From a virus (lineage: Duplodnaviria; Caudoviricetes), in IMG/VR virus record IMGVR_UViG_3300020577_007794: DNA of 64,000 bases; one strand, 5' to 3'. Each line of letters opens with the position of its first letter. Positions within the stretch are counted from its first letter, which is position 1. Shown here piece by piece: positions 1,195-37,514 of the stretch. Both the position numbers and the translations under genes were made by a program. Under the pieces are notes generated by a model. It saw nothing but the letters and a program-made list of their open reading frames with translations. It was not told the DNA's origin and did no database searches.

Positions 1195-1728
1195 TTAGGC
1201 CACCCTGCCCTTGGTTACTACTACTGTACGTCGTATGCGATGTAGTGTGTATACTACACTACCATCTGTGTTCACAGTGCCTGTGCCTAGTATCTTGGTA
1301 ATCTCCCTTACCTTATCTTCCATGTTGTGTGGTGATACATACACATGTAGTGGTGTATCGTTACCATCAGCATATGTAGTTATGGTACAGTGTGTGTGCT
1401 GTGTATCTGTGGTAGGTGTAGTAGGTACACATGGTGTGTGTGTTGGCTGTGTGTACACATAGATGATCTGCAATCCAAATCTCTTATCATTCAATACATC
1501 TACTGTGTGTGTAGTGTACTGTATGGTAGTAGTGTGGTATATGTCTTGATTCATCTCACTCTTCTTCAACATGTCTGCTGCTGTGGCTGTCATGTACTGT
1601 GTGGACAGATGCTTGTTGCCTGTCTTATCACATGATATCACTATTCTTGCTACAGTAACATCATTATTCATAGATGTCATGTCAATAAGTGTAGTGATGT
1701 CAATGTTGTTCTTAATTGTGTTTTTCAT
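1195..1728 (-). CDS. hypothetical Thr/His-rich protein in compositionally skewed DNA
   Basis: Open frame with an AAGGT RBS like its neighbours; the composition reflects CA-rich minus-strand DNA. Confidence 0.45.
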   Translation of the reverse strand: MKNTIKNNIDITTLIDMTSMNNDVTVARIVISCDKTGNKHLSTQYMTATAADMLKKSEMNQDIYHTTTIQYTTHTVDVLNDKRFGLQIIYVYTQPTHTPCVPTTPTTDTQHTHCTITTYADGNDTPLHVYVSPHNMEDKVREITKILGTGTVNTDGSVVYTLHRIRRTVVVTKGRVA

Positions 1729-1845
1729 TTGTGTTACCTTTGGGGCTTTCTTACCCCGCAAAAAGGACCGGGGTCCAGATTTTAGACCTACCCCCTACTT
1801 ATATCTTGATTACATCTGAAATTTGTCTTTGTTTCCTACATTGGA

Positions 1846-1883
1846 TTCTAATACGTTTGTGTTTCTAATTCGTTTGTGTTTCT
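1846..1883. repeat. 17-bp imperfect tandem repeat (TTCTAATWCGTTTGTGT x2)
   Basis: Read directly from the sequence. Confidence 0.8.
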
Positions 1884-2009
1884 TGCAGTGGGTGATTTTT
1901 TTCCTATAGAAAAGACCGGGGGTATAATTCCACATTTCCCTTTTACTATACTTTGGTTTTTTGAAAAAAGTACAAAAAGATTTTTCACCACCTATAAAGG
2001 GGCTTGTTC

Positions 2010-2109
2010 CATTGGCTGAAAGACAATAGATGAAAACATTGGCTGAAAGACAATAGATGAAAACATTGGCTGAAAGACAATAGATGAAAACATTGGCTGA
2101 AAGACAATA
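2010..2109. repeat. 27-bp perfect tandem repeat, 3.7 copies (CATTGGCTGAAAGACAATAGATGAAAA)
   Basis: Copies start at 2010, 2037 and 2064, with a 19-bp partial copy at 2091. Confidence 0.97.
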
Positions 2110-2117
2110 CTTATAGT

Positions 2118-2522
2118 ATGGACCAAGAATTAGGTAAAGGATATAGCTTTGATCTTAGTGGTGATCTAGAAGTAGACACTGTTACGGTTGATGTAGATTT
2201 ACCAAAAGATGTTGAGACGGCATTGAATGAGTTTTTCAACATGCTTTCTTCCAAACTCGAGGTGTATATGAAATTGCCAACCGAATTAGGAATATACACA
2301 AGTAATAAACTCTTTGTTATTGTTGATACACAGAGTTATATGAGTCTGGATTCTGTAGAAAGAGAAGACTACTGCATAAATGCGGTTGATAGTATTCTTT
2401 CATATTTAAAAGAAACAGGGGGAGTTATTCATAAGTTGGTGGCTGAGGAGGCTGTACATGATTATAAGTATGATTCTTACCTTGCAAAATTTGCTGTGTA
2501 TGTACTTGTTATTAAGGAGTAG
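2118..2522 (+). CDS. hypothetical protein
   Basis: 134-aa ORF, first of the rightward block. Confidence 0.65.
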   Translation: MDQELGKGYSFDLSGDLEVDTVTVDVDLPKDVETALNEFFNMLSSKLEVYMKLPTELGIYTSNKLFVIVDTQSYMSLDSVEREDYCINAVDSILSYLKETGGVIHKLVAEEAVHDYKYDSYLAKFAVYVLVIKE

Positions 2523-2528
2523 GCTCTA

Positions 2529-2960
2529 ATGGATTTGAGTGGTATATTTTTACAGCACTTCTTAAGGGGATTGGAAGGGAAGGGGATCTGTCTTGAGGTT
2601 CCCGACGTTATTTTAGATGAAGAATACGTTTCTGGTGGCTGCAGACCTGATTGGATTAACATTATTTTGGACGATGCGATTGAATTTGTGGACAAAAACC
2701 CGATTTACAACAAAAATGGGCTCCTAAAACCTGTTTTAATAGTAATTTCTTCGTCTACTTTGTCTAGATACAAGTTTCGGGCAGCTATTTTAAGAAAAAA
2801 AGCTTCAAATAAAGTGGAAGTGGTGTCAAAAATGGCGGATGCGTTCTCTTACGACCCCTGTTTGCTTGTGTTTTTTGGGGAAAATCCCTCTTTTACAGCA
2901 AATTGTGCCACTTTAGCTATTAAAATCGTGAAACAAGACCTAGGTACAAGCCATTCTTGA
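2529..2960 (+). CDS. hypothetical protein
   Basis: 143-aa ORF, 6 nt after the previous stop. Confidence 0.6.
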   Translation: MDLSGIFLQHFLRGLEGKGICLEVPDVILDEEYVSGGCRPDWINIILDDAIEFVDKNPIYNKNGLLKPVLIVISSSTLSRYKFRAAILRKKASNKVEVVSKMADAFSYDPCLLVFFGENPSFTANCATLAIKIVKQDLGTSHS

Positions 2961-3047
2961 GGTATTATACGTTTTGACCTCTCTAAAAAAAATTTGCTTT
3001 TACAAGCAGACGCTCCCTGGGGGTCGGAGTTAAGGAAAATGACAAAT

Positions 3048-3875
3048 ATGTACAATCAAAAGTTCGTTGCAACTATCGTGGTTAACGGCCACATTGTTCC
3101 AGAGAGAGAAGACGGGGTAGTTTTCCTCGATGCTGGCACAGAATATAAGATCAGGCTTAGAAATAAGAATGATAGAAGAGCTGTTGCCTCCATTTCTATT
3201 GATGGAGAGAATGTAACAGATGGTGGTGTTGTTATTAATGCTGATTCTGTTGTAGAAATTGAGAGAAGTGTGCAGAAAGCTTTCAAATTTAAGTTTGTTG
3301 CACTAGACAGTGAAGCTGCCCAGGATTTTGGAAAGGACCAGGCTAATAAGTCTGGTGCAATGGGTGTTATTGCTGTAGAATTCAGACTTGAAAAGCAAAG
3401 AAATATTGTTGAATCTGCCAAAAACTACAGAGGTATTGGCAGCACTTCCACTACTTTGCAGGATATTTTAAGCAAAGATCTACACAATCCAAAGATTTGT
3501 GGGCCATTGAATGGAGCCTTAGGGTCACCTAGGAGAATCACTACTGGACCTATTAGCGGAATGTCAATGGCAGCTTCCGCAGGTGCCCAGTGCATGAATA
3601 CATCCTATAGCAATGTTTCCTTGGGCTGCGGAAGTCAATCCTCTTCTGCCCCGAAATCGGATCTATCTGATTTAGGCTGCACAGTAGAAGGAGAGTATTC
3701 TTCACAAAAATTCAAAGAAACTTACTTAGACGTGGAACCAGTTGGGTACACCGTGCATCTAACATTAAGACAGAAGGATAATTCTAAGGAATTAGAAATA
3801 CGAAAGCAGATCGAACAATTGGAAAAGGAAACTAGAGAAAAGATTAATGAATTGAAGAAGCAGTTGTCTAGGTAG
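3048..3875 (+). CDS. hypothetical protein (beta-rich N-terminal domain, low-complexity linker, C-terminal coiled coil)
   Basis: Long ORF; TAAGGA RBS (alternative ATG at 3039); EYKIRLRN...ISIDG beta-strand pattern. Confidence 0.75.
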   Translation: MYNQKFVATIVVNGHIVPEREDGVVFLDAGTEYKIRLRNKNDRRAVASISIDGENVTDGGVVINADSVVEIERSVQKAFKFKFVALDSEAAQDFGKDQANKSGAMGVIAVEFRLEKQRNIVESAKNYRGIGSTSTTLQDILSKDLHNPKICGPLNGALGSPRRITTGPISGMSMAASAGAQCMNTSYSNVSLGCGSQSSSAPKSDLSDLGCTVEGEYSSQKFKETYLDVEPVGYTVHLTLRQKDNSKELEIRKQIEQLEKETREKINELKKQLSR

Positions 3876-4370: not shown

Positions 4371-4448
4371 CTGGGTATAGTGTAGTTTGTTTACCACGCC
4401 TACTTTGGGAGTAGGAGATCGGGGGTTGGAATCCCTCTACCCAGACCA
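4371..4448 (+). tRNA. tRNA-Pro(TGG)
   Basis: CTGGGTA/TACCCAG acceptor stem, CCTAC-TTTGGGA-GTAGG anticodon arm, encoded CCA. Confidence 0.92.
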
Positions 4449-4463
4449 ATTTAATAAGATAGC

Positions 4464-4539
4464 GGGGCGATAGTTCAGTTGGTAGAACATTTCACTGAAA
4501 ATGAAGAGGTCCCTGGTTCGATCCCAGGTTGCCCCACCA
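4464..4539 (+). tRNA. tRNA-Phe(GAA)
   Basis: GGGGCGA/TTGCCCC acceptor stem, CTGAAAA loop, TTCGA T-loop, CCA. Confidence 0.95.
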
Positions 4540-4543
4540 AAAT

Positions 4544-4631
4544 GCGGGGTTTGCTTTAGAGGCCGAAAAGTCCGGGCTGTTAACCCGGTGGAGAAATCCC
4601 ATCGCAGGTTCGAATCCTGCACCCCGCTCCA
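4544..4631 (+). tRNA. tRNA-Asn(GTT) with long variable arm
   Basis: GCGGGGT/ACCCCGC acceptor stem, CCGGG-CTGTTAA-CCCGG anticodon arm, 15-nt variable region, CCA. Confidence 0.9.
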
Positions 4632-4636
4632 ATAAT

Positions 4637-4711
4637 ACCAGGCTAGCTCAACGGTAGAGCATGTGCTTGATAAGCGCAGGGTTTGAAGTTCGATTCTTCA
4701 GCCTGGTACCA
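4637..4711 (+). tRNA. tRNA-Ile(GAT)
   Basis: ACCAGGC/GCCTGGT acceptor stem, TTGATAA loop, CCA. Confidence 0.93.
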
Positions 4712-4722
4712 ATATTTAATAT

Positions 4723-5508
4723 GTGGTCTTTAAGTTCTACATTCAATCTTCTATAAATATAGAAGCTCATGATCAAATTTTTGAGGCATGTGAAGAATTA
4801 GGTTTTGATTTTGAATCTGTGCCTATTATTCCATTCAGTGATAAGCTGCCTGATGACATAGATTTTTCTAAACCAGGAATGCCATATGGATCAACTACAT
4901 TTGTAAGATTGTCAGGCGAACATCCCAGTCTTCAAAAGTACACTTATCAATCTAAAGAGAAACTAAATCCACAGACTTACTTTGAAAAACTCGGAGAGCT
5001 GTATCTTAATGAACCTATATATGTAGGCTCAATAAGAGACATACCTGATTTCGATGAAGTTTTTATGAAATGTAACTCTGATGGAAAGGATATTACTGGT
5101 CGGGTGTACACGTTAAGTGAAATTCAGGAACTTAGAAGAATCACGACAACTCATTATGAAGCTGGAAACATAGTGTCACCTGATTTAGAGGTCTTCTGTT
5201 CTACTACAAAAGATTTAGCTTTCGAAACGAGAAACATTTTTATTGGTGGTGAGTGGGTAGATGGTTCTTATTATAGAAAGAAAGGAAGAACATGTCGAGA
5301 TAGAATGACTTCCGAGGATCAGGATATCATTGATTTTGCGAAGAAATGCATATCAACGTATGAACCTTTTGATATGAATGTAGTGGACATAGGTCTTTCT
5401 TATGATGGGCTAAAATGTATTGAGTATAATTGTTTTAATGCTAGTGGGTGGTATGCTTGTGATCACAAGTTAATAATTCAGAAAGCAAAAGAGTGGTGTT
5501 TAAAGTAA
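4723..5508 (+). CDS. ATP-grasp domain protein (DUF4343/R2K-like)
   Basis: PYGS, VFMK, ETRNIF..GEWVDGSYY and VVDIG....KCIEYNCFNASGWY motifs. Confidence 0.85.
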   Translation: MVFKFYIQSSINIEAHDQIFEACEELGFDFESVPIIPFSDKLPDDIDFSKPGMPYGSTTFVRLSGEHPSLQKYTYQSKEKLNPQTYFEKLGELYLNEPIYVGSIRDIPDFDEVFMKCNSDGKDITGRVYTLSEIQELRRITTTHYEAGNIVSPDLEVFCSTTKDLAFETRNIFIGGEWVDGSYYRKKGRTCRDRMTSEDQDIIDFAKKCISTYEPFDMNVVDIGLSYDGLKCIEYNCFNASGWYACDHKLIIQKAKEWCLK

Positions 5509-5756
5509 TGCATTATTGGTATTTAGCTTATAACCCGAAAACTAATATGGGTTGTTACATTCAAGTCGTTGGTTCTTCAGGAGAGTCATTATTGTCAGAA
5601 GATAGGGAGTTAATTAGAGCTTTCCTTAGAAAAAACGCTGGTTACGTCTTAGATTTTTCTTGTGAAGATGAACTTCTTGATAAATTACATGATAATCATG
5701 GTATTATTTTGAATAAACTACCACAAAGTCTAAAAGAAAAATACATTAATGAGTGA
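5508..5756 (+). CDS. hypothetical protein
   Basis: ATG overlaps the previous TAA (TAATG coupling). Confidence 0.6.
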   Translation: MHYWYLAYNPKTNMGCYIQVVGSSGESLLSEDRELIRAFLRKNAGYVLDFSCEDELLDKLHDNHGIILNKLPQSLKEKYINE

Positions 5757-6144
5757 CGAAGAATTAAAGGCCACATTTGAAAGTGGAAATTACAAAATAA
5801 TTGTACACAAAATTACTGAGGAAATGGCAGCACTACTTGACAATGCTGTAGGGGAACCTCTGATATTTGTGAATGGAAAACTTATGAAGGAAAAAGACAT
5901 AAAAGAAAATTTTTTAACAGTAATTACATATTATCACCCAGATGATAAAGAATTTATGGGAGATTATCATTCTATCGAAATTCTTGATAGTACTGGAGTT
6001 GTGGTAATGAATTATGGTGATCACTACCATGATAAAGGTAGTGAAAGAGCACAAGGATTTATTGAAGGAATCCTCTGGGTCTATCCGCAATACAGAGACA
6101 GAATAGGGTACATTCAAAAGAATTTGGAGGAAGATAGTGGTTAA
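5749..6144 (+). CDS. hypothetical protein
   Basis: 131-aa ORF overlapping its neighbours. Confidence 0.65.
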   Translation: MSDEELKATFESGNYKIIVHKITEEMAALLDNAVGEPLIFVNGKLMKEKDIKENFLTVITYYHPDDKEFMGDYHSIEILDSTGVVVMNYGDHYHDKGSERAQGFIEGILWVYPQYRDRIGYIQKNLEEDSG

Positions 6145-6493
6145 GATTTTAAAGTTTGATGAAAAAGATTGTTTAAATTTCAGATTTGGTGTGGAACTAA
6201 TATCCCCCGTTTCTGAATTACAGATTGAAGAAGCGGAATATAAGGTTCCTAATTATATGGGAGCTAAACATGTTGGGTATACTACTGCAAAAATTACCTG
6301 CCAGGGTCATGCAGTTCTCGATATCCCTTATGAGAAGTTGATTGAAAAGAATGTTGACTGGGAAAGAGAAGTAACAGCCAATTTCTCTTCAAAAACCAAA
6401 CCTGGTCTAGTGTTGAATAACTTTAGCATTACGCAATTCAAGAAGAATAACGATAAAACTATTGTAAGTTTTTATTGTGCGCCTTCTAAGTAA
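6137..6493 (+). CDS. hypothetical beta-rich protein
   Basis: GGAGG RBS plus GTG start; 118 aa. Confidence 0.65.
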   Translation: MVKILKFDEKDCLNFRFGVELISPVSELQIEEAEYKVPNYMGAKHVGYTTAKITCQGHAVLDIPYEKLIEKNVDWEREVTANFSSKTKPGLVLNNFSITQFKKNNDKTIVSFYCAPSK

Positions 6494-6600
6494 TAGTTTG
6501 CCCTAATTGTGACGCTCAGTTACCTACGTATAAAGCTAAAAACCTAGGTAATGGTAGGGCGTTTAGGCGACAAAGATACGCAGAAGGGAAATCTTTCTAA
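6490..6600 (+). pseudogene. C-terminal remnant of an HNH endonuclease
   Basis: Start-less frame VIVCPNCDAQLPTYKAKNLGNGRAFRRQRYAEGKSF*, resembling the CPNC-x-x-Q tail of phage HNH proteins. Confidence 0.7.
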
Positions 6601-6603
6601 TTT

Positions 6604-6679
6604 GCCCCGGAAGTTCATGAGATTGAACGTCGCACTTGTAATGCGAATGCAGCAGGTTTGAATCCTGTCCGGGGCTCCA
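6604..6679 (+). tRNA. tRNA-Thr(TGT)
   Basis: GCCCCGG/CCGGGGC acceptor stem, TCGCA-CTTGTAA-TGCGA anticodon arm, CCA. Confidence 0.92.
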
Positions 6680-6698
6680 TTTTAACTAGTGAAATAAC

Positions 6699-6777
6699 GG
6701 GCTGTGGGACTGCTAGCGGTGGTCACTTCATTTGCACTGAAGAAGTCAGCAGGGTTGGAATCCCTGACGGTCCACCA
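6699..6777 (+). tRNA. tRNA-Ala(TGC)
   Basis: GGGCTGT/ACGGTCC acceptor stem with G3:U70, CTTCA-TTTGCAC-TGAAG anticodon arm, CCA. Confidence 0.9.
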
Positions 6778-6788
6778 ATATTATTAGT

Positions 6789-6948
6789 ATGAGTTACGGA
6801 GTTGGAGGGGGACCTACAGGGCCGGAACCAGATAGTGTTCCCCCAGATTCACCTATAGAATGTCATTATTCTTATTGCGAGTATTGTAAATCGAAACAAA
6901 AAAAGTAAAGAGATTAAATGCCCTAATTGCGGTGCCCCTTTAAAATGA
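6789..6948 (+). pseudogene. small zinc-ribbon protein split by a frameshift in an A7 tract
   Basis: CEYC lies in one frame and CPNCGAPL in another; deleting one A from 6898-6904 joins them. Confidence 0.6.
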
Positions 6949-7097
6949 AAGGAAGAATATCTAAAGAATTCCAGGAAATACTACACAATCCTGAAACTAG
7001 GAAGAAACTAAGGGAGATTGTGGATGGTGTCCTGAAGAGTGGGACTATTACCCTCCCGAATGGGAAAGTGGTTAAAATTAGGAGATGGGGGCAATAG
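6945..7097 (+). CDS. 50-aa hypothetical protein
   Basis: ATGA overlap with the previous stop; MKGRISKEFQEILHNPETRKKLREIVDG... Confidence 0.55.
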   Translation: MKGRISKEFQEILHNPETRKKLREIVDGVLKSGTITLPNGKVVKIRRWGQ

Positions 7098-7104
7098 TAT
7101 TAAT

Positions 7105-7530
7105 ATGGATTATTGTGCCATCGGTTCGACCAGTCTTAGAAACGTAAGTACTGTTGCGGGTTACGATCTAGATCTAACCAGTTTTAAAGACGTAAGTATT
7201 ATCGTGTACTGTGATAAACTTATTGGAGATGTTGAGTGTGCGACGTGGACAAGAAGCGTCGAAGTCTACCCGATTCCAGGTGAAGAGGATTGCGGTGTAC
7301 GAGTAGATATGGATTCCCTACTTATTGTTGGTTCTATGGTTATTAAACCTAAAACAGGGTGTCTAGTGTCTGGGGATTCGGTTAAGGAACTTAATCTCTT
7401 CGGTAGGAGCTCAAAAGGTGTAGGTGAGTATAAATTCAAAAATGTAAAGATATACGGCACCTCTTGGAACCCCAAAACTAAAGAAATGGGTATAAGCTTC
7501 TCTTGTGATTCAATTAAAGAACCACACTAA
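7105..7530 (+). CDS. tail-tube-like paralog outside the structural module
   Basis: Shares K(L)IGDVECATWTRSVE / KVGNLESVTWTVSTE and an identical LIVGSMV with the 34874-35671 tube protein. Confidence 0.7.
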   Translation: MDYCAIGSTSLRNVSTVAGYDLDLTSFKDVSIIVYCDKLIGDVECATWTRSVEVYPIPGEEDCGVRVDMDSLLIVGSMVIKPKTGCLVSGDSVKELNLFGRSSKGVGEYKFKNVKIYGTSWNPKTKEMGISFSCDSIKEPH

Positions 7531-7539
7531 TTATGAATT

Positions 7540-7567
7540 ACCCCGCTTCGGCGGGGTTTTTTTTATT
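7540..7567 (+). terminator. Rho-independent terminator
   Basis: ACCCCGC-TTCG-GCGGGGT hairpin followed by a T tract. Confidence 0.92.
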
Positions 7568-7589: not shown

Positions 7590-7811
7590 ATGGCTATAGA
7601 AAAGAAGTATTGGGTGGCGTCCATAAGAACATCTGATGGAAGACATGTGTTCATGAGAGATTCTAGCCTTGATAGTCTAAAAGAAAGGTTGGACCAATAT
7701 ACGTTAGCTAGGGAGATCAGTATAGAGACCGCTATTTTCCTAGAAGATGAAGGCGATGTAGTCGAACCATCTTCAGCGAAGCCTGGGAGACCAAAGAAGA
7801 GCTCTATTTAA
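7590..7811 (+). CDS. hypothetical protein
   Basis: ATG after the terminator; MAIEKKYW...KPGRPKK. Confidence 0.6.
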   Translation: MAIEKKYWVASIRTSDGRHVFMRDSSLDSLKERLDQYTLAREISIETAIFLEDEGDVVEPSSAKPGRPKKSSI

Positions 7812-7826
7812 TTAAGGTGAACCACT

Positions 7827-8108
7827 ATGGCACAACCAGATACATTTAAGGAAACTTTATCCTCTCTGCGCTCGCAGATGACGGATAATTATAAAAACGC
7901 TAAGCCTAAAAGGTTTGCAGGACTTCTTCAACTTCATGGAGAAATTCAAGTTAATCTAGCCTCTGGAGTAACACACTCTGTACACATGGGAGACAGAGGT
8001 TTGCTAACAGAAGACGAATTGATTTATGAAGACAGATCAGGGCAGTTAATCTGTCTCTTTTGGGATCAAGTTGAATCCGTTTGGTTCCACATTGGCTATA
8101 TAGACTAA
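7827..8108 (+). CDS. hypothetical protein
   Basis: AAGGTG RBS and upstream CTCTATTT motif; 93 aa. Confidence 0.7.
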   Translation: MAQPDTFKETLSSLRSQMTDNYKNAKPKRFAGLLQLHGEIQVNLASGVTHSVHMGDRGLLTEDELIYEDRSGQLICLFWDQVESVWFHIGYID

Positions 8109-8128: not shown

Positions 8129-11100
8129 TTAAAGATAGCCCTCTTTTTTTCTCCTACTATTAGCTAGTCCATACCCCGCTAGTCCCAAACCACCAACAAT
8201 TGGGATTGCGGGGTTTATTTTTCCAGTTTTAACAGCATGTTCAGCCGCAGCTTGGCCACTATTCATAACAGCACCTACCGCTGATTTAGGGGCATTCATA
8301 CCCGTAGAAGCTTGCTCAACCGCTGTCTCAGCCAAAGCTGCAGCTTTACCAGTTGCTTCAGCCATTATTCTTCTTGAGGAAGCCATAAAACTGGCATGGG
8401 TCATCGTCTGGTTAGAGTGTCCTATAACTTGTGATGCACCTTTTTGCAATTGCTGCGCCACTGTAGCAACCGCAATTTGCAGACCAGCTCCCACAACTCC
8501 CTGACCTACGTCTGAAGAGGCTAATGTTTCAGCTATGTGAGACATCTGCCCCATTACTTTAAGGGCTGAGTTTGATCTCAGGAATGTGTTTACTTCCTTA
8601 GTTGCGTACTTGTCAGCATGAACTGCTGAAACAGCTATATCGTCCATGTATGCGTGGAACATATTAACTGCATTATGTTCACCACCAAAGGAGATAGTGG
8701 CACCATAACGGGCTTTCTCCAGAGCATCAGCGTACACATTCTCCAATCCTTCAACAGATTCTCGAGCGATAACTCTCCAATCCCCACCAGACTGCTCAAA
8801 GATTTCTGGGTATTGAGTAGGATCCAGTCTTCCAGATCTAACAGCAGTTTCGAGGACAGCTCCGTAAGTCTGTCCCACGGATTCCCTAGACCTAACTTGG
8901 TTCATGCTTACAAAGATATCAATAGGTCTTCCTGTAGGGTCAACACCAAAATCACCGTGGACAACAGAGACAGCTTTGTTACCCCATAGTGAATCAAGTT
9001 TCAGGGTTTGTGATGTATGGAAATTCTTTCCCTCTTCAGTAAGAACGTATCTTACTTTGTCGCCATTCTCAACCCGTTCGTACATCCTGTCAAAAAGGGA
9101 ACTATAGCTGTCTGCAGAGGCTGCTCTTTGCTCACCCTCTGTTAGGAAGCTATCTGGCGATGCTTCGAACCCAGACATCATATTTTTTACAAAGCTTTCC
9201 CGGCCTGTAGTAAAATACTCTTCCTCTGTTAAGTTGGGGCCTATTTTGTTGGCTGACATTACCTTTTCTAGAAGTTTATCTCTAAAAGATTCAGAAACAA
9301 GAATAAGGCCTTCATCCGCTCTTTTAGTTCCAACGTCTGCTGTTAGATCATACATGCTGAAGAGGGGGTGAGCTACTTGGCTGTCCCCGAAAGCTACGTT
9401 CAGCTCTCCAAGCATAATACCGCCACCACCTATCTGTTTAGATATGTTGGCAGCTCTTGATGCAGATTTAGCAGATATAACTCCGATACCTTGATTCAAC
9501 CCTATAGGAGCAAATGACCCGGCGGCGGCACCTAGCCTAAACTGCATGACCCTGTTATTCATGGAGCTTGTTGACTTCATGTGGATGCCACCCACCTCTT
9601 CTGCGTAGTTGGCCGCTGTATCAGCCATCATTTCCAGATTAGGGTCAGTAACTCTTAAATCAACACCAACAGTTGTAGCGGCCCGCATCATGTCAGCCTC
9701 CCCAATATCAACTATGTTTCCGTCTATTATTCTCACAGGATTCATGGTTTTGAAACCATGGGCTTCTAAAATCTTATCGGTTTGCTGTTTAATAGCTGAA
9801 AAGGCACTTTGATTGTGCATCAAGTTGAACCTTTTTATAATTTCCATGTGCTGGGCTGATTCGTGACCACCCGCTAATATCTCTCTCCCCAATGCAGAGG
9901 CGTCAACCTCATTGGTCAGACCGTATGCACTCATTAACTGCTCCCTGAATACCTGGGATTTACCATTATGTCCGTTTATTAGGGCGTTTCCGATACTTGT
10001 GTGGGAGTAAAAACCTGTTGTTGACATGAAGGAGCGCATACTATTAGTAGAAGATTCTTCTAATAGCTGTTCAATATGCTCTATAGGATTTCTAAACTTA
10101 ATTCTGTTCCCCTCTTCTCTGATACCCATATTGCCTATTAATGGTATCTCAAATACGTTGTCAGCTCCAAATGGGTGGTCAATAACACCATCTAACCCAC
10201 GGAACATCAGTCCATGAACTTCGTTAGTATATCCTGTACCTAAAAGATCTTGTCTTGCGTATTTTGAAGGGATGTTGATTGATTCTAGGTCAACAACACC
10301 AGCTTTCATCAATCTTTTTAGAATTGTGTTGGCTGGGTCATATTCAATTTGTTCTACAGCTTTGGTTTTCTTATTAAGAACAGCCTCAGCTAGTGTTCTG
10401 GTTCTTTTTTGGAAGTCATCAATGGAGGCTGCACCAAACACGTCTCTCATGGTGTTTTCAGTGCTTCCACCTATACTTGTCAAAGTGTTTAGTAAATCAA
10501 GGGAGTCAGCATGACTCATATTAGATATGCTGTTTGTTTTGAAGAGTAGTTGGTTGTGCTTCAACATCATGTTGAAGGTGTCTAAAATACCTCTATCCTG
10601 TATGTTGCCTTGACCACCTCTCAAGGCTTTCATTCGAATTTCAACGTCGAAAAGTCTGTTTGGGTTGGACGCATCAACCATTTTTTTAGCAACAGCGTCA
10701 GTTTGGAGGAGGAGCTCTAGGGATTGATTATAAGATCCGTTTCTATCTACGATATCTCCCATTGCTGATTCGTAGAAATCGAAGAATTTTTTGTGGGTAG
10801 CCCTTTTTTTTCCAGAATTTTTAGCGTTTTCTAGCTGCTCAGCTGCCATTTTTTGGGTTAAAAGAAGCCTTTCCTGGAACTTTGCTGGGTCGTTAGTTTT
10901 CAGGTCATTGACCTCAATAGCAGCAGCATACATAGCCTGTAAGTCATGCAGGTTTGTAATGATACCGGTAAGCGGGTCTTGAAGTTCTTTTGTGGCTATA
11001 TCTCTTACAGCCTCTACATTAGAGAGTTTTGACCCCCTTAACCTATAAAGGTCTCCAAGAACACTAAATTGACCAGCAGCCTCTTCTGAGGAGAAGATTC

Positions 11101-35736: not shown

Positions 35737-36675
35737 ATGGCTGACGAACCAATCACTAACAGAGACACAATAAAGCGTACTCCCCGAACAGACTCAAGAA
35801 GTTTTGTCTGGGCTAGAGATAGGAAAGTACCAAAAGACTTCTCAGGTGCTAAGGATTTATCCTTTGCCAATCTTCATGCTTACGCTGTAATTCCCGCAAG
35901 GATTGCTGGAAAGATACAGATGGCTGAAGTTGAACTGCCATCACTGACCCTTGTCGGCCTGTCTACACACCGGGATACTTTTCCTGTTGTGTCGTCAGGC
36001 CGTCGTGGTATTAAGGGCTTCACAACTGGACACGCAGTAGTTGCTGGTTCTCTTGGATTCACCATAACTGATGAAGCCCCTTTTGCTCCACTTCTCAGGG
36101 CATACGCAACCTATATAGGTAATGCAACTTACGCTGAGAGTTTTATGCCAAATGAACTTCCCCCATTTGATCTTGTTTGCGTATTTAAAGATGACAAGAT
36201 AAGAGATGGGGCCATGGGGTTTAAAATTAGTGGAATTAAGATTCTTGACAGCTCAACTGTTATAGGGGTTGATAATTTAGTCATCAACTACACCTACTCA
36301 TTTATGGCTATGAGAGTAACGGAAATGATGAACTTAGACCAAGTTCAAATATCCTATGAAGAGAATCCTAACTATATAAATCAGGACAGAGTAAGTAGGA
36401 GATCTAATCCCCCCAGGTTAAAACTTTCCTTTAACTGGGTTAGCAGCAACTCCGATACCTTCGAAAACTACGATTTTGGTTTCAATGACGACATAGTAAC
36501 TATCCCAGATGATGAAGATTCTTCCTCAGATAGTGACTATGAGTTCGGCATTATATCAGCAGACCCAGGAGTCAACAGATCTCTAAGTGGTTCAAGTGGT
36601 GCTGCTACAGCTGCAGACTCAGGCAGCAGCACTGATTTAGGGGCAGCGGCCCCAGGAGCTGTTTATCCATGGTAG
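35737..36675 (+). CDS. tube-like protein 2 (baseplate/tube initiator)
   Basis: GHAVVAGSLGF and NELPPFDLV, paralogous to the tube. Confidence 0.75.
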   Translation: MADEPITNRDTIKRTPRTDSRSFVWARDRKVPKDFSGAKDLSFANLHAYAVIPARIAGKIQMAEVELPSLTLVGLSTHRDTFPVVSSGRRGIKGFTTGHAVVAGSLGFTITDEAPFAPLLRAYATYIGNATYAESFMPNELPPFDLVCVFKDDKIRDGAMGFKISGIKILDSSTVIGVDNLVINYTYSFMAMRVTEMMNLDQVQISYEENPNYINQDRVSRRSNPPRLKLSFNWVSSNSDTFENYDFGFNDDIVTIPDDEDSSSDSDYEFGIISADPGVNRSLSGSSGAATAADSGSSTDLGAAAPGAVYPW

Positions 36676-37514
36676 ATTCATCTTACGGCAGGTCTTCTTT
36701 TAACTACCCACAAAATCCTCTCTCAGGTGAGGAATGGAGTATTGTTGATAGATTTGATTCCAGCTATTGGAGTGGAAGGGAGGTTGTTTATTACTTTGAC
36801 AATGTAAGACTAGATGAAGTAATACAGCTTTCCTACCAAGTAGTTGAGAGAGCCACACCATTCTACGGCTACGCCAGTTATGTAGCTGATGTCATTGTTC
36901 ACGGTCAACGACTAATAAGTGGGGAAATTACCATGAACTTTAAGCGGGATGGCTATATTTTCAGCCTTCTTAACCTTCTCAGAAGTGAAGATCCTGGCTC
37001 AATCTGGGCAAACTTAGGGCAAGCTTCCGACCAGACAGGTAAGAAAACAGATTGGGGTAACAATACCTCCCCTTCCGCAGCAGCAGCTTCCCTTAAGTCG
37101 GGGAGCCTTAGCCCAGCGCAGTTGAAGAAGGTTGTTCAGGAAAGATACCAACAAGAGATTGGTTCTGGTTCTGCCAGCAACTATCCTTCTGTAGTAGAGA
37201 CAGCAGGTGGCCTTTATGCTACAAGGAAAAAAGGTTTTGACATCAATATTATATTTGGAGCAGATCTTAGAAGTGAACTTGCTCTACGATATGATGGGAA
37301 CTCCGGGGCATACGCTGATATTATCAGAGTACCCTCAGAACAAGTGACTGATAACATTGCTACTGGTGTAAAGATTATTGGGGCTAGTATTTCTGGTAAG
37401 GGTAGAACTATTTCTGATGATGGTAGACCTGTAGCAGAAACTTTCACTTTTACTGCTAGAGATCTCGTTATACTGAACCCTGAAGATATTGACTCCCAAA
37501 GTATTTCACCTTAA
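36669..37514 (+). CDS. tube-like protein 3
   Basis: GQRLISGEITMNF, GFDINIIFG and ETFTFTARD. Confidence 0.72.
   Translation: MVDSSYGRSSFNYPQNPLSGEEWSIVDRFDSSYWSGREVVYYFDNVRLDEVIQLSYQVVERATPFYGYASYVADVIVHGQRLISGEITMNFKRDGYIFSLLNLLRSEDPGSIWANLGQASDQTGKKTDWGNNTSPSAAAASLKSGSLSPAQLKKVVQERYQQEIGSGSASNYPSVVETAGGLYATRKKGFDINIIFGADLRSELALRYDGNSGAYADIIRVPSEQVTDNIATGVKIIGASISGKGRTISDDGRPVAETFTFTARDLVILNPEDIDSQSISP

Follow-up and report, generated by a model that had tools for sequence, protein, structure and literature searches.

A small protein encoded outside the tail module of a jumbo myophage and resembling the tail tube family in its N-terminal half

The DSR2 protein binds the monomeric form of a phage tail tube protein, and the phage-encoded DSAD1 is reported to block DSR2 from an overlapping pocket, thereby 'mimicking' the tube (PMC11087589, PMC10973363). 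The contacts made by DSR2 involve beta-strands near the N-terminus of the tube protein, and DSAD1 itself consists of three intertwined sheets, with eight strands in all, and a single helix (PMC11263360). A tube-like core has also been described in a second protein of phage phiKZ, in which the core of gp88 aligns with the tube protein gp30 (PMC13250141).

The window analysed here is a whole stretch of 64,000 nucleotides from a jumbo myophage, and contigs carrying the genes of this phage reach 194 kb. It encodes a 141-aa protein, P0001 (Table 1), which the initial annotation had taken to be a copy of the tail tube and a possible decoy. The tube family of jumbo myophages similar to Bacillus phage 0305phi8-36 (phrog_9206) has an N-terminal signature of ~55 residues in common with P0001, in the same order and with the same spacing, and both are predicted to be beta-rich. 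P0001 is, however, half as long as these tubes. It is without the 33-residue N-terminal arm and the ~100-residue helical or disordered insertion, absences which had been claimed by eye and which length and alignment confirm, and it is also without the invariant C-terminal motifs DQ.PPFD and QET. Furthermore, phrog_9206 tubes are widespread and encoded beside a sheath gene, whereas P0001 occurs in three close lineages and is encoded away from the sheath.

Other described systems also bear comparison with this locus. The P0001 family (118-141 aa) is similar in size to the minimal tube-fold proteins (117-160 residues; Mu trunk, GTA, R4C, monocin, PVC, T4 gp19 and T6SS Hcp), although these gave no sequence matches to P0001. 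As with tube initiators and terminators such as phiKZ gp88, the phage has, besides its tube, a further protein with a tube-like core that is shorter or otherwise modified; those proteins, however, are constant components of the neck or baseplate, while relatives that share the tail module have no P0001 gene. DSAD1, the DSR2 inhibitor of phage SPbeta, resembles P0001 in being small and encoded by a phage elsewhere than among its tail genes; it has not been reported as homologous to tubes, and its comparison with P0001 is by description only (PMC11263360).

The explanation preferred here, with a probability of roughly 0.45 as a whole, is that P0001 is the functional product of a clade-restricted accessory gene and a minimal, strongly diverged member of the tail tube fold in a jumbo phage with a contractile tail, and that it acts most probably in the tail or its assembly. 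That the protein is related to the tube at all, as a minimal tube-fold paralog, is on its own considerably easier to accept and is regarded here as probable.

Table 1. Coordinates of the features discussed, numbered from the first letter of the window
Feature	Position	Strand	Basis
Gene for the 141-aa protein P0001	7105..7530	+	ORF and translation, gene calls, homologues
Tandem duplication, 48 nt (16 codons), near the N-terminus	7129..7198	+	direct repeat
Tube-like block, residues ~26-82	7180..7350	+	BLASTP, hhalign, Smith-Waterman, HMMs
C-terminal half, residues 83-141, predicted all-beta	7351..7527	+	low-confidence model
Intrinsic-terminator-like hairpin, ACCCCGC-TTCG-GCGGGGT and T-run	7540..7567	+	scan, sequence
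Two small genes, 73 aa (ATG 7590) and 93 aa (7827-8108)	7590..8108	+	gene calls, synteny
Tail tube gene, P0002, 265 aa	34874..35671	+	after sheath gene; AlphaFold; Foldseek
Second tube paralog, P0003, 312 aa	35737..36675	+	hhalign against tube family

The tail tube of the phage and its annotation

On the basis of structure prediction and gene order, the comparator protein P0002 is a true tail tube. Its gene comes after a sheath gene (phrog_16991, E 2.4e-30), and an AlphaFold model based on 46 homologues had a pLDDT of 71 overall and of 80-90 in the beta core. When this model was searched with Foldseek it matched solved tubes (phage 812, diffocin, phiCD508, PVC and others) at E-values down to 1.5e-7, with TM-scores by target of 0.71-0.75. 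In the model, strands at residues 40-91 are followed by a helical or disordered insertion at ~93-190 and by further strands at 196-241; the invariant columns of the family (P0002 numbering) are D191, Q192, P194, F196, E222 and T223.

The next gene in the module encodes a second tube paralog, P0003, whose family was matched by the tube family with 98% probability (hhalign, E 6e-14). It is followed by a gene for a 281-aa protein (36669-37514, + strand) that was matched weakly by the tube-family HMM among the window ORFs (E 0.008), and the product is possibly a third tube-like protein of the tail module.

Bacillus phage 0305phi8-36 and Acinetobacter phage ME3 encode distant relatives of P0002, at 25-30% identity. 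The family carries the label 'major head protein', both in phrog_9206 and in the RefSeq records of these phages (0305phi8-36, NC_009760.1; vB_AbaM_ME3, NC_041884.1). This label looks wrong, as the predicted structure matches solved tubes at the E-value given above and the gene follows that of the sheath. The phrog_9206 family, for which the head annotation has been propagated, would therefore need to be corrected to one with a predicted tail tube fold.

A clade-restricted gene outside the tail module

The reading frame reported in the initial annotation exists, as a 141-codon open frame confirmed by translation. Its ATG start is backed by the N-termini of the homologues, which read MGSC in both and align with MDYC in P0001, and the same ATG was picked by gene callers on five public contigs, all of which encode an identical P0001 protein. 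A longer gene beginning at GTG 7039 was hinted at by an alignment of the tube HMM to the codons that precede the ATG in frame; the alignment scored 1.4 bits and was judged to be noise, and the longer form was rejected because the homologues begin at the ATG.

Just two relatives of P0001 were found when 1.84 billion representative proteins were searched exhaustively with HMMER, which returned no fused or longer forms, and the same two were recovered by a word-indexed search of 5.8 billion clusters. The first, P0004 (122 aa), is 73-75% identical to P0001 and occupies the same genomic position; the second, P0054 (118 aa), is 41% identical. Both are encoded ahead of the same two small genes as P0001. 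With two relatives a deeper alignment of P0001 could not be built, and with three family members in all the predicted structure was of low confidence.

Comparison of the P0001 gene with its copy in the sister phage L001 gave a dN of 0.165 and a dS of 1.33, the latter near saturation, and a dN/dS of 0.12 that falls inside the range for the neighbouring genes compared with L001 (0.013 to 0.13). The two syntenic homologues and this ratio together show that the reading frame truly codes for a protein, is subject to purifying selection and belongs to a narrow clade. It evolves no faster than the tube, with an identity of 75% for P0001 against 78% for the phage's own tube. Near the N-terminus, a direct repeat (7129-7150 and 7177-7198, 86% identical, spacing 48) duplicates 16 residues; the duplication is specific to the lineage of the window, and P0004 and P0054 each have a single copy.

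The family is not represented in the reference collections searched. No Pfam match was found for P0001, P0004 or P0054 at E-values up to 10, scans of P0001 and its neighbours against Pfam and PHROGs yielded nothing usable, and P0001 had no match to phrog_9206 in PHROGs. A tblastn search of P0001 against 50,697 phage records gave chance matches only, with E-values of at least 6, and megablast of the region found no matching phage sequence. A sequence search of the PDB with the family profile returned only NanoLuc fusion chains (E ~0.05), which were judged to be chance, and the same search with the N-terminal half alone returned nothing. Within the window, a 118-aa ORF at 6137-6493 was considered as a paralog of P0001 and rejected (BLASTP E 2.7).

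The surroundings of the gene are accessory in character: five tRNAs lie there, together with genes for an R2K ATP-grasp protein and an HNH protein and the remnant of a second HNH endonuclease. The placement in a tRNA and accessory block is therefore as had been described, 27.3 kb upstream of the tube gene, and the tube's position directly after the sheath gene is not shared by the P0001 gene, which lies ~27 kb upstream. The description of the gene as separately terminated also stands. The hairpin and T-run that follow it are GC-rich in the stem, begin ten bases past the stop codon and are kept in three lineages, being present after the homologues in L001 and L008, which represent both sister lineages. 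The genes for the 73-aa and 93-aa proteins come next in all three lineages (L001 and L005-L008); their products are 78% and 92% identical to the L001 counterparts, and neither was assigned to a family by the Pfam and PHROGs scans.

Relatives whose tubes are 40-46% identical to that of the window have collinear tail modules, with a ~305-aa gene, the sheath, the tube, its paralog and a ~275-aa gene in that order. No additional small gene is found in these modules, which argues that the P0001 gene is not a relocated core component. Orthologues of P0001 were also absent from 15 related phage records, and in the relative G001, which is 95% complete, no homologue was found anywhere, including at the syntenic place; the interval in G001 bounded by its counterparts of the 1272-aa and 93-aa genes is instead occupied by unrelated genes and tRNAs. 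As relatives with collinear tail modules are without the gene, it appears from sequence comparison to be a clade-specific extra tube paralog outside the tail module, and in that sense the term 'orphan' is apt.

In the same variable part of G001, a distant relative (L069, G001:C1:199000-208000), ORFs of 356 and 362 aa lie beside the 1272-aa gene at 1355-3510 on the - strand of that segment, together with tRNA-Cys and tRNA-Ser. By eye only, these two ORFs resemble a sugar-nucleotidyltransferase and an NAD-dependent sugar dehydratase/epimerase.

Relationship of P0001 to the tail tube family

The likeness between P0001 and the tube was detected by several methods, all of which place it in the N-terminal half. 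Pairwise BLASTP aligned residues 14-80 of P0001 with residues 19-90 of the tube (E 5e-4), and the tube was the best non-self BLASTP match of P0001 among the 158 window ORFs (E 0.05). The Smith-Waterman score of the N-terminal half was 54, against 22.9 +/- 4.4 for shuffled sequences, and none of 2000 shuffles reached 54. With hhalign, the P0001 family as a profile of two sequences matched the tube family at E 1.1e-5 with 81% probability; after addition of the third homologue these values became 1.6e-4 and 51%. The corresponding hhalign scores were 39.5 and 33.1, and the maximum obtained from shuffled controls, for which seventy column-shuffled versions were made per query profile, was 21.6. The tube-family HMM ranked P0001 third among the window ORFs (E 0.0018), after the tube itself and P0003, and conversely the HMM of the P0001 family had the tube as its best match beyond the family itself (E 0.0027).

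The signal also recurs with tubes of other phages. The P0001-family profile, searched in six frames against the 15 related phage records, gave three matches, all of them tube genes of different phages and all in the same N-terminal region (E 0.0026-0.007), and none outside tube genes even at E-values up to 10. A further, distant subfamily of tubes, comprising 31 sequences with 25-30% identity to P0002, was matched in the same register (E 0.007-0.025). Since the scores of P0001 against other tube homologues are equal to or above that against its own phage's tube, the likeness is to the tube family and not to one pair of proteins. No likeness between the P0001 family and the family of P0003 was found with hhalign.

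The part retained, residues ~26-82, reads F..g.d....n..iG.lE..tWt.s.E...livGS.V and corresponds to the first beta-strands of the tube family. Two of the three matches that had been pointed out by eye, DVSIIVYCDKLIGDVECATWTRSVE and LIVGSMV, belong to this single block, which is above chance and aligns with residues 34-92 of the tube; the LIVGSMV string itself is replaced by FVEGNIV in the third family member. On these comparisons, the N-terminal half of P0001 is homologous to the tail tube family.

The third match, of ELNLFGRS...YKFKNVKI with FNLTLVGVN...LTIFGMQI, did not hold up: it scored 24 against 21.6 +/- 4.2 for shuffles, 515 of 2000 of which reached it. The hhalign alignment does not extend into the C-terminal half even when the insertion is deleted from the tube profile; it covers the N-terminal block only, so that no full-length alignment to the phage's own tube family (phrog_9206) was obtained, and statistically supported similarity to the bona fide tube family is confined to the N-terminal half. 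The C-terminal half is the best conserved part within the P0001 family, and sequence relatives of it outside that family were not found.

The predicted structure of P0001 is a source of leads only, because the model itself is poor. The AlphaFold2 model, built on an alignment of two sequences, is all-beta with a pLDDT of 39.6, and places strands at residues 28-34, 53-56 and 71-82 in the N-terminal half and at 96-102, 105-122 and 127-138 in the C-terminal half, with no helix predicted at the usual place of tube proteins. As far as so poor a model allows, this pattern of strands would parallel the core of the tube minus its insertion. In an exhaustive alignment to 48,161 PDB representatives, ~47 of the best 50 chains were tube-fold as judged by entry title (GTA, R4C, monocin and PVC tubes, Mu trunk, Hcp, pyocin hub, T4); these aligned over model residues 23-141 with Z-scores of 4.0-5.2, which are below the meaningful level of 8 and represent a weak structural likeness. 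The Foldseek lists for PDB and BFVD were also dominated by tubes, at E-values of at least 1e-3 and below the meaningful level of the tool. A language-model feature search with P0001 pointed to clusters of T6SS Hcp (0.85); this lead was not repeated with P0054, and none of the three family members matched Hcp (PF05638) in Pfam at E-values up to 10.

The claim of a tube paralog is thus upheld by several sequence tests for the N-terminal half, and a low-confidence model agrees with it without proving it; a tube fold for the whole protein is what we infer.

The main alternative is that P0001 is not related to the tube, and is instead another small all-beta barrel, PilZ-like or split-barrel-like, or a new fold, in which case the N-terminal likeness would be a coincidence of strand pattern. 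The ESM Atlas model of P0054 was nearest to clusters of the PilZ domain, a small all-beta barrel that binds c-di-GMP, with TM-scores of 0.55-0.62, and PilZ chains and clusters were also among the matches of the P0001 model (Z 3.9 among the 48,161 PDB representatives, with mixed atlas matches that included PilZ clusters). The missing helix is in keeping with such a barrel, as are the silence of the C-terminal half and of the P0003 family, and after correction for the ~160 window ORFs the E-values for the tube are about 2e-3 to 5e-2. However, these matches to PilZ are weak to moderate and involve low-confidence models, and P0001, P0004 and P0054 all lack the RxxxR and (D/N)xSxxG motifs of PilZ, the last of the three having no arginine at all; nor was there a Pfam match to PilZ (PF07238) at E-values up to 10. 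The barrel of phage tail proteins is described in structure classifications as topologically similar to split barrels, and cross-matches to PilZ would therefore be expected. The sequence evidence, on the other hand, points to the tube only, in that independent targets return the same region of the tube in the same register and the 15 related records held no match of the profile elsewhere. An origin unrelated to the tube is accordingly judged unlikely, though it keeps a real share of the probability.

Possible roles and genomic context

Every tube-fold match in the fold searches was either a particle component (of a phage virion, a tailocin or a contractile injection system) or a T6SS Hcp, and the prior therefore favours a tail-associated role. 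Jumbo phages are known to build special rings from proteins with tube-like cores, as in the case of phiKZ gp88 (PMC13250141), and the pace at which the P0001 gene evolves, no higher than that of the tube, points the same way. P0001 would have kept the first-strand signature of the tube family after loss of the arm and insertion, with a C-terminal half that may have diverged beyond recognition, and the tube-type sheet so retained would dock on a surface to which tube subunits ordinarily bind. The docking partner would most probably lie in the phage's own tail or in its assembly, and less probably be a host protein, and P0001 could then serve as a lineage-specific cap, adaptor or assembly factor that stacks on a tube-type ring. 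The gene is nevertheless located in a variable region (tRNAs, an ATP-grasp gene and HNH endonuclease remnants) and ends at a terminator of its own, and related phages with an equivalent set of tail genes do without it; all of this counts against a role in the tail. A heteromer prediction for the tube and P0001, scored at 0.00 with controls not run, is given no weight in either direction. An accessory role associated with the tail is offered tentatively, at a little under even odds.

The same features of the locus bear on the proposal of the initial annotation, that P0001 is a soluble, non-polymerising protein derived from the tube that blocks a host sensor (a DSR2-like NADase) or poisons the tail assembly of a rival phage. 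In one form of it, argued by analogy, a shortened and soluble tube-derived mimic, still bearing the strands that the sensor would recognise but unable to form a tube itself, would saturate a DSR2-like abortive-infection protein before the real tube accumulates. It would agree with this that the most conserved segment of the tube has been kept while the arm and insertion are lost, and that the gene sits among tRNAs and homing-endonuclease traffic, is closed by a terminator of its own and does not occur in relatives sharing the tail genes; DSR2 and DSAD1 provide a functional precedent (PMC11087589, PMC10973363). DSAD1, however, is not described as a tube homologue (PMC11263360). Moreover, the P0001 gene is not fast-evolving, as its dN/dS and its identity beside that of the tube indicate, the segment from the conserved Trp to the LIVGS strand is nearly as long as in the tube, so that a loss of polymerisation would be a presumption, and this phage group is not known to face a tube-sensing system. 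A decoy, in the general or the sensor-saturating form, is improbable, and an association with the tail is clearly the likelier of the two roles. A decaying and functionless remnant of a tube gene duplication is already disfavoured and very improbable. The truncation relative to the tube, the internal 48-nt duplication and the presence of other gene remnants in the region would fit it, but all three lineages, at 41-75% identity, have kept the frame open, the dN/dS is low, and the start, leader and terminator are conserved.

If the reading of P0001 as a minimal tube-fold accessory protein holds, an unannotated family of three members, without a sequence match in Pfam, PHROGs or PDB, joins the tail tube superfamily, and a lineage of jumbo phages has retained, away from its tail genes, a reduced additional copy of the tube. 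As a result on tail evolution this would be modest, and the copy becomes interesting only if it is non-structural. Were the decoy proposal true, P0001 would be the first anti-defence decoy to have evolved by duplication of the trigger itself, and a new route of counter-defence.

Several further features of the region were recorded. A scan for promoters of the sigma-70 type found sites no more numerous than in shuffled sequences. The motif CTCTATTT, a candidate late promoter, occurs 9 times in the window against 4.4 +/- 2.1 in shuffles, with 3 of 100 shuffles reaching 9, an excess that is suggestive at best; none of the 9 is upstream of the P0001 gene. The ~35 bases before the start codon (aaaattagga.a.tgggg.caatagtatta.t) are kept in three lineages, at 7070-7104 in the window, 9966-10000 in L001 and 114-148 in L008. 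In L001 this leader is the leftover 3' end of a 50-aa upstream gene, which has been replaced there by a 128-aa gene.

The tRNAs differ between the two phages, with Pro, Phe, Asn, Ile and Ala at 4371-6777 in the window and Gly, Pro, Asn, Ile, Thr and Ala at 7185-9564 in L001. A 34-codon open stretch at 6499-6600 (+ strand), CPNCDAQLPTYKAKNLGNGRAFRRQRYAEGKSF followed by a stop codon, is the C-terminal remnant of a gene for a 208-aa HNH-type endonuclease; the sister phage L001 has a complete copy in the corresponding position (8711-9337), and the gene has therefore been either lost in the window or gained in L001. Lastly, at 6789-6948 (+ strand) a 39-codon ORF ends with ...CEYCKSKQKK and a stop codon at an A-run (6893-6907), and the +1 frame then continues with EIKCPNCGAPLK up to its own stop codon. 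Joined together, the two parts would form a zinc ribbon of the type CxxC...CxxC, and the break between them may reflect a frameshift in the homopolymer, decay to a pseudogene or programmed slippage.
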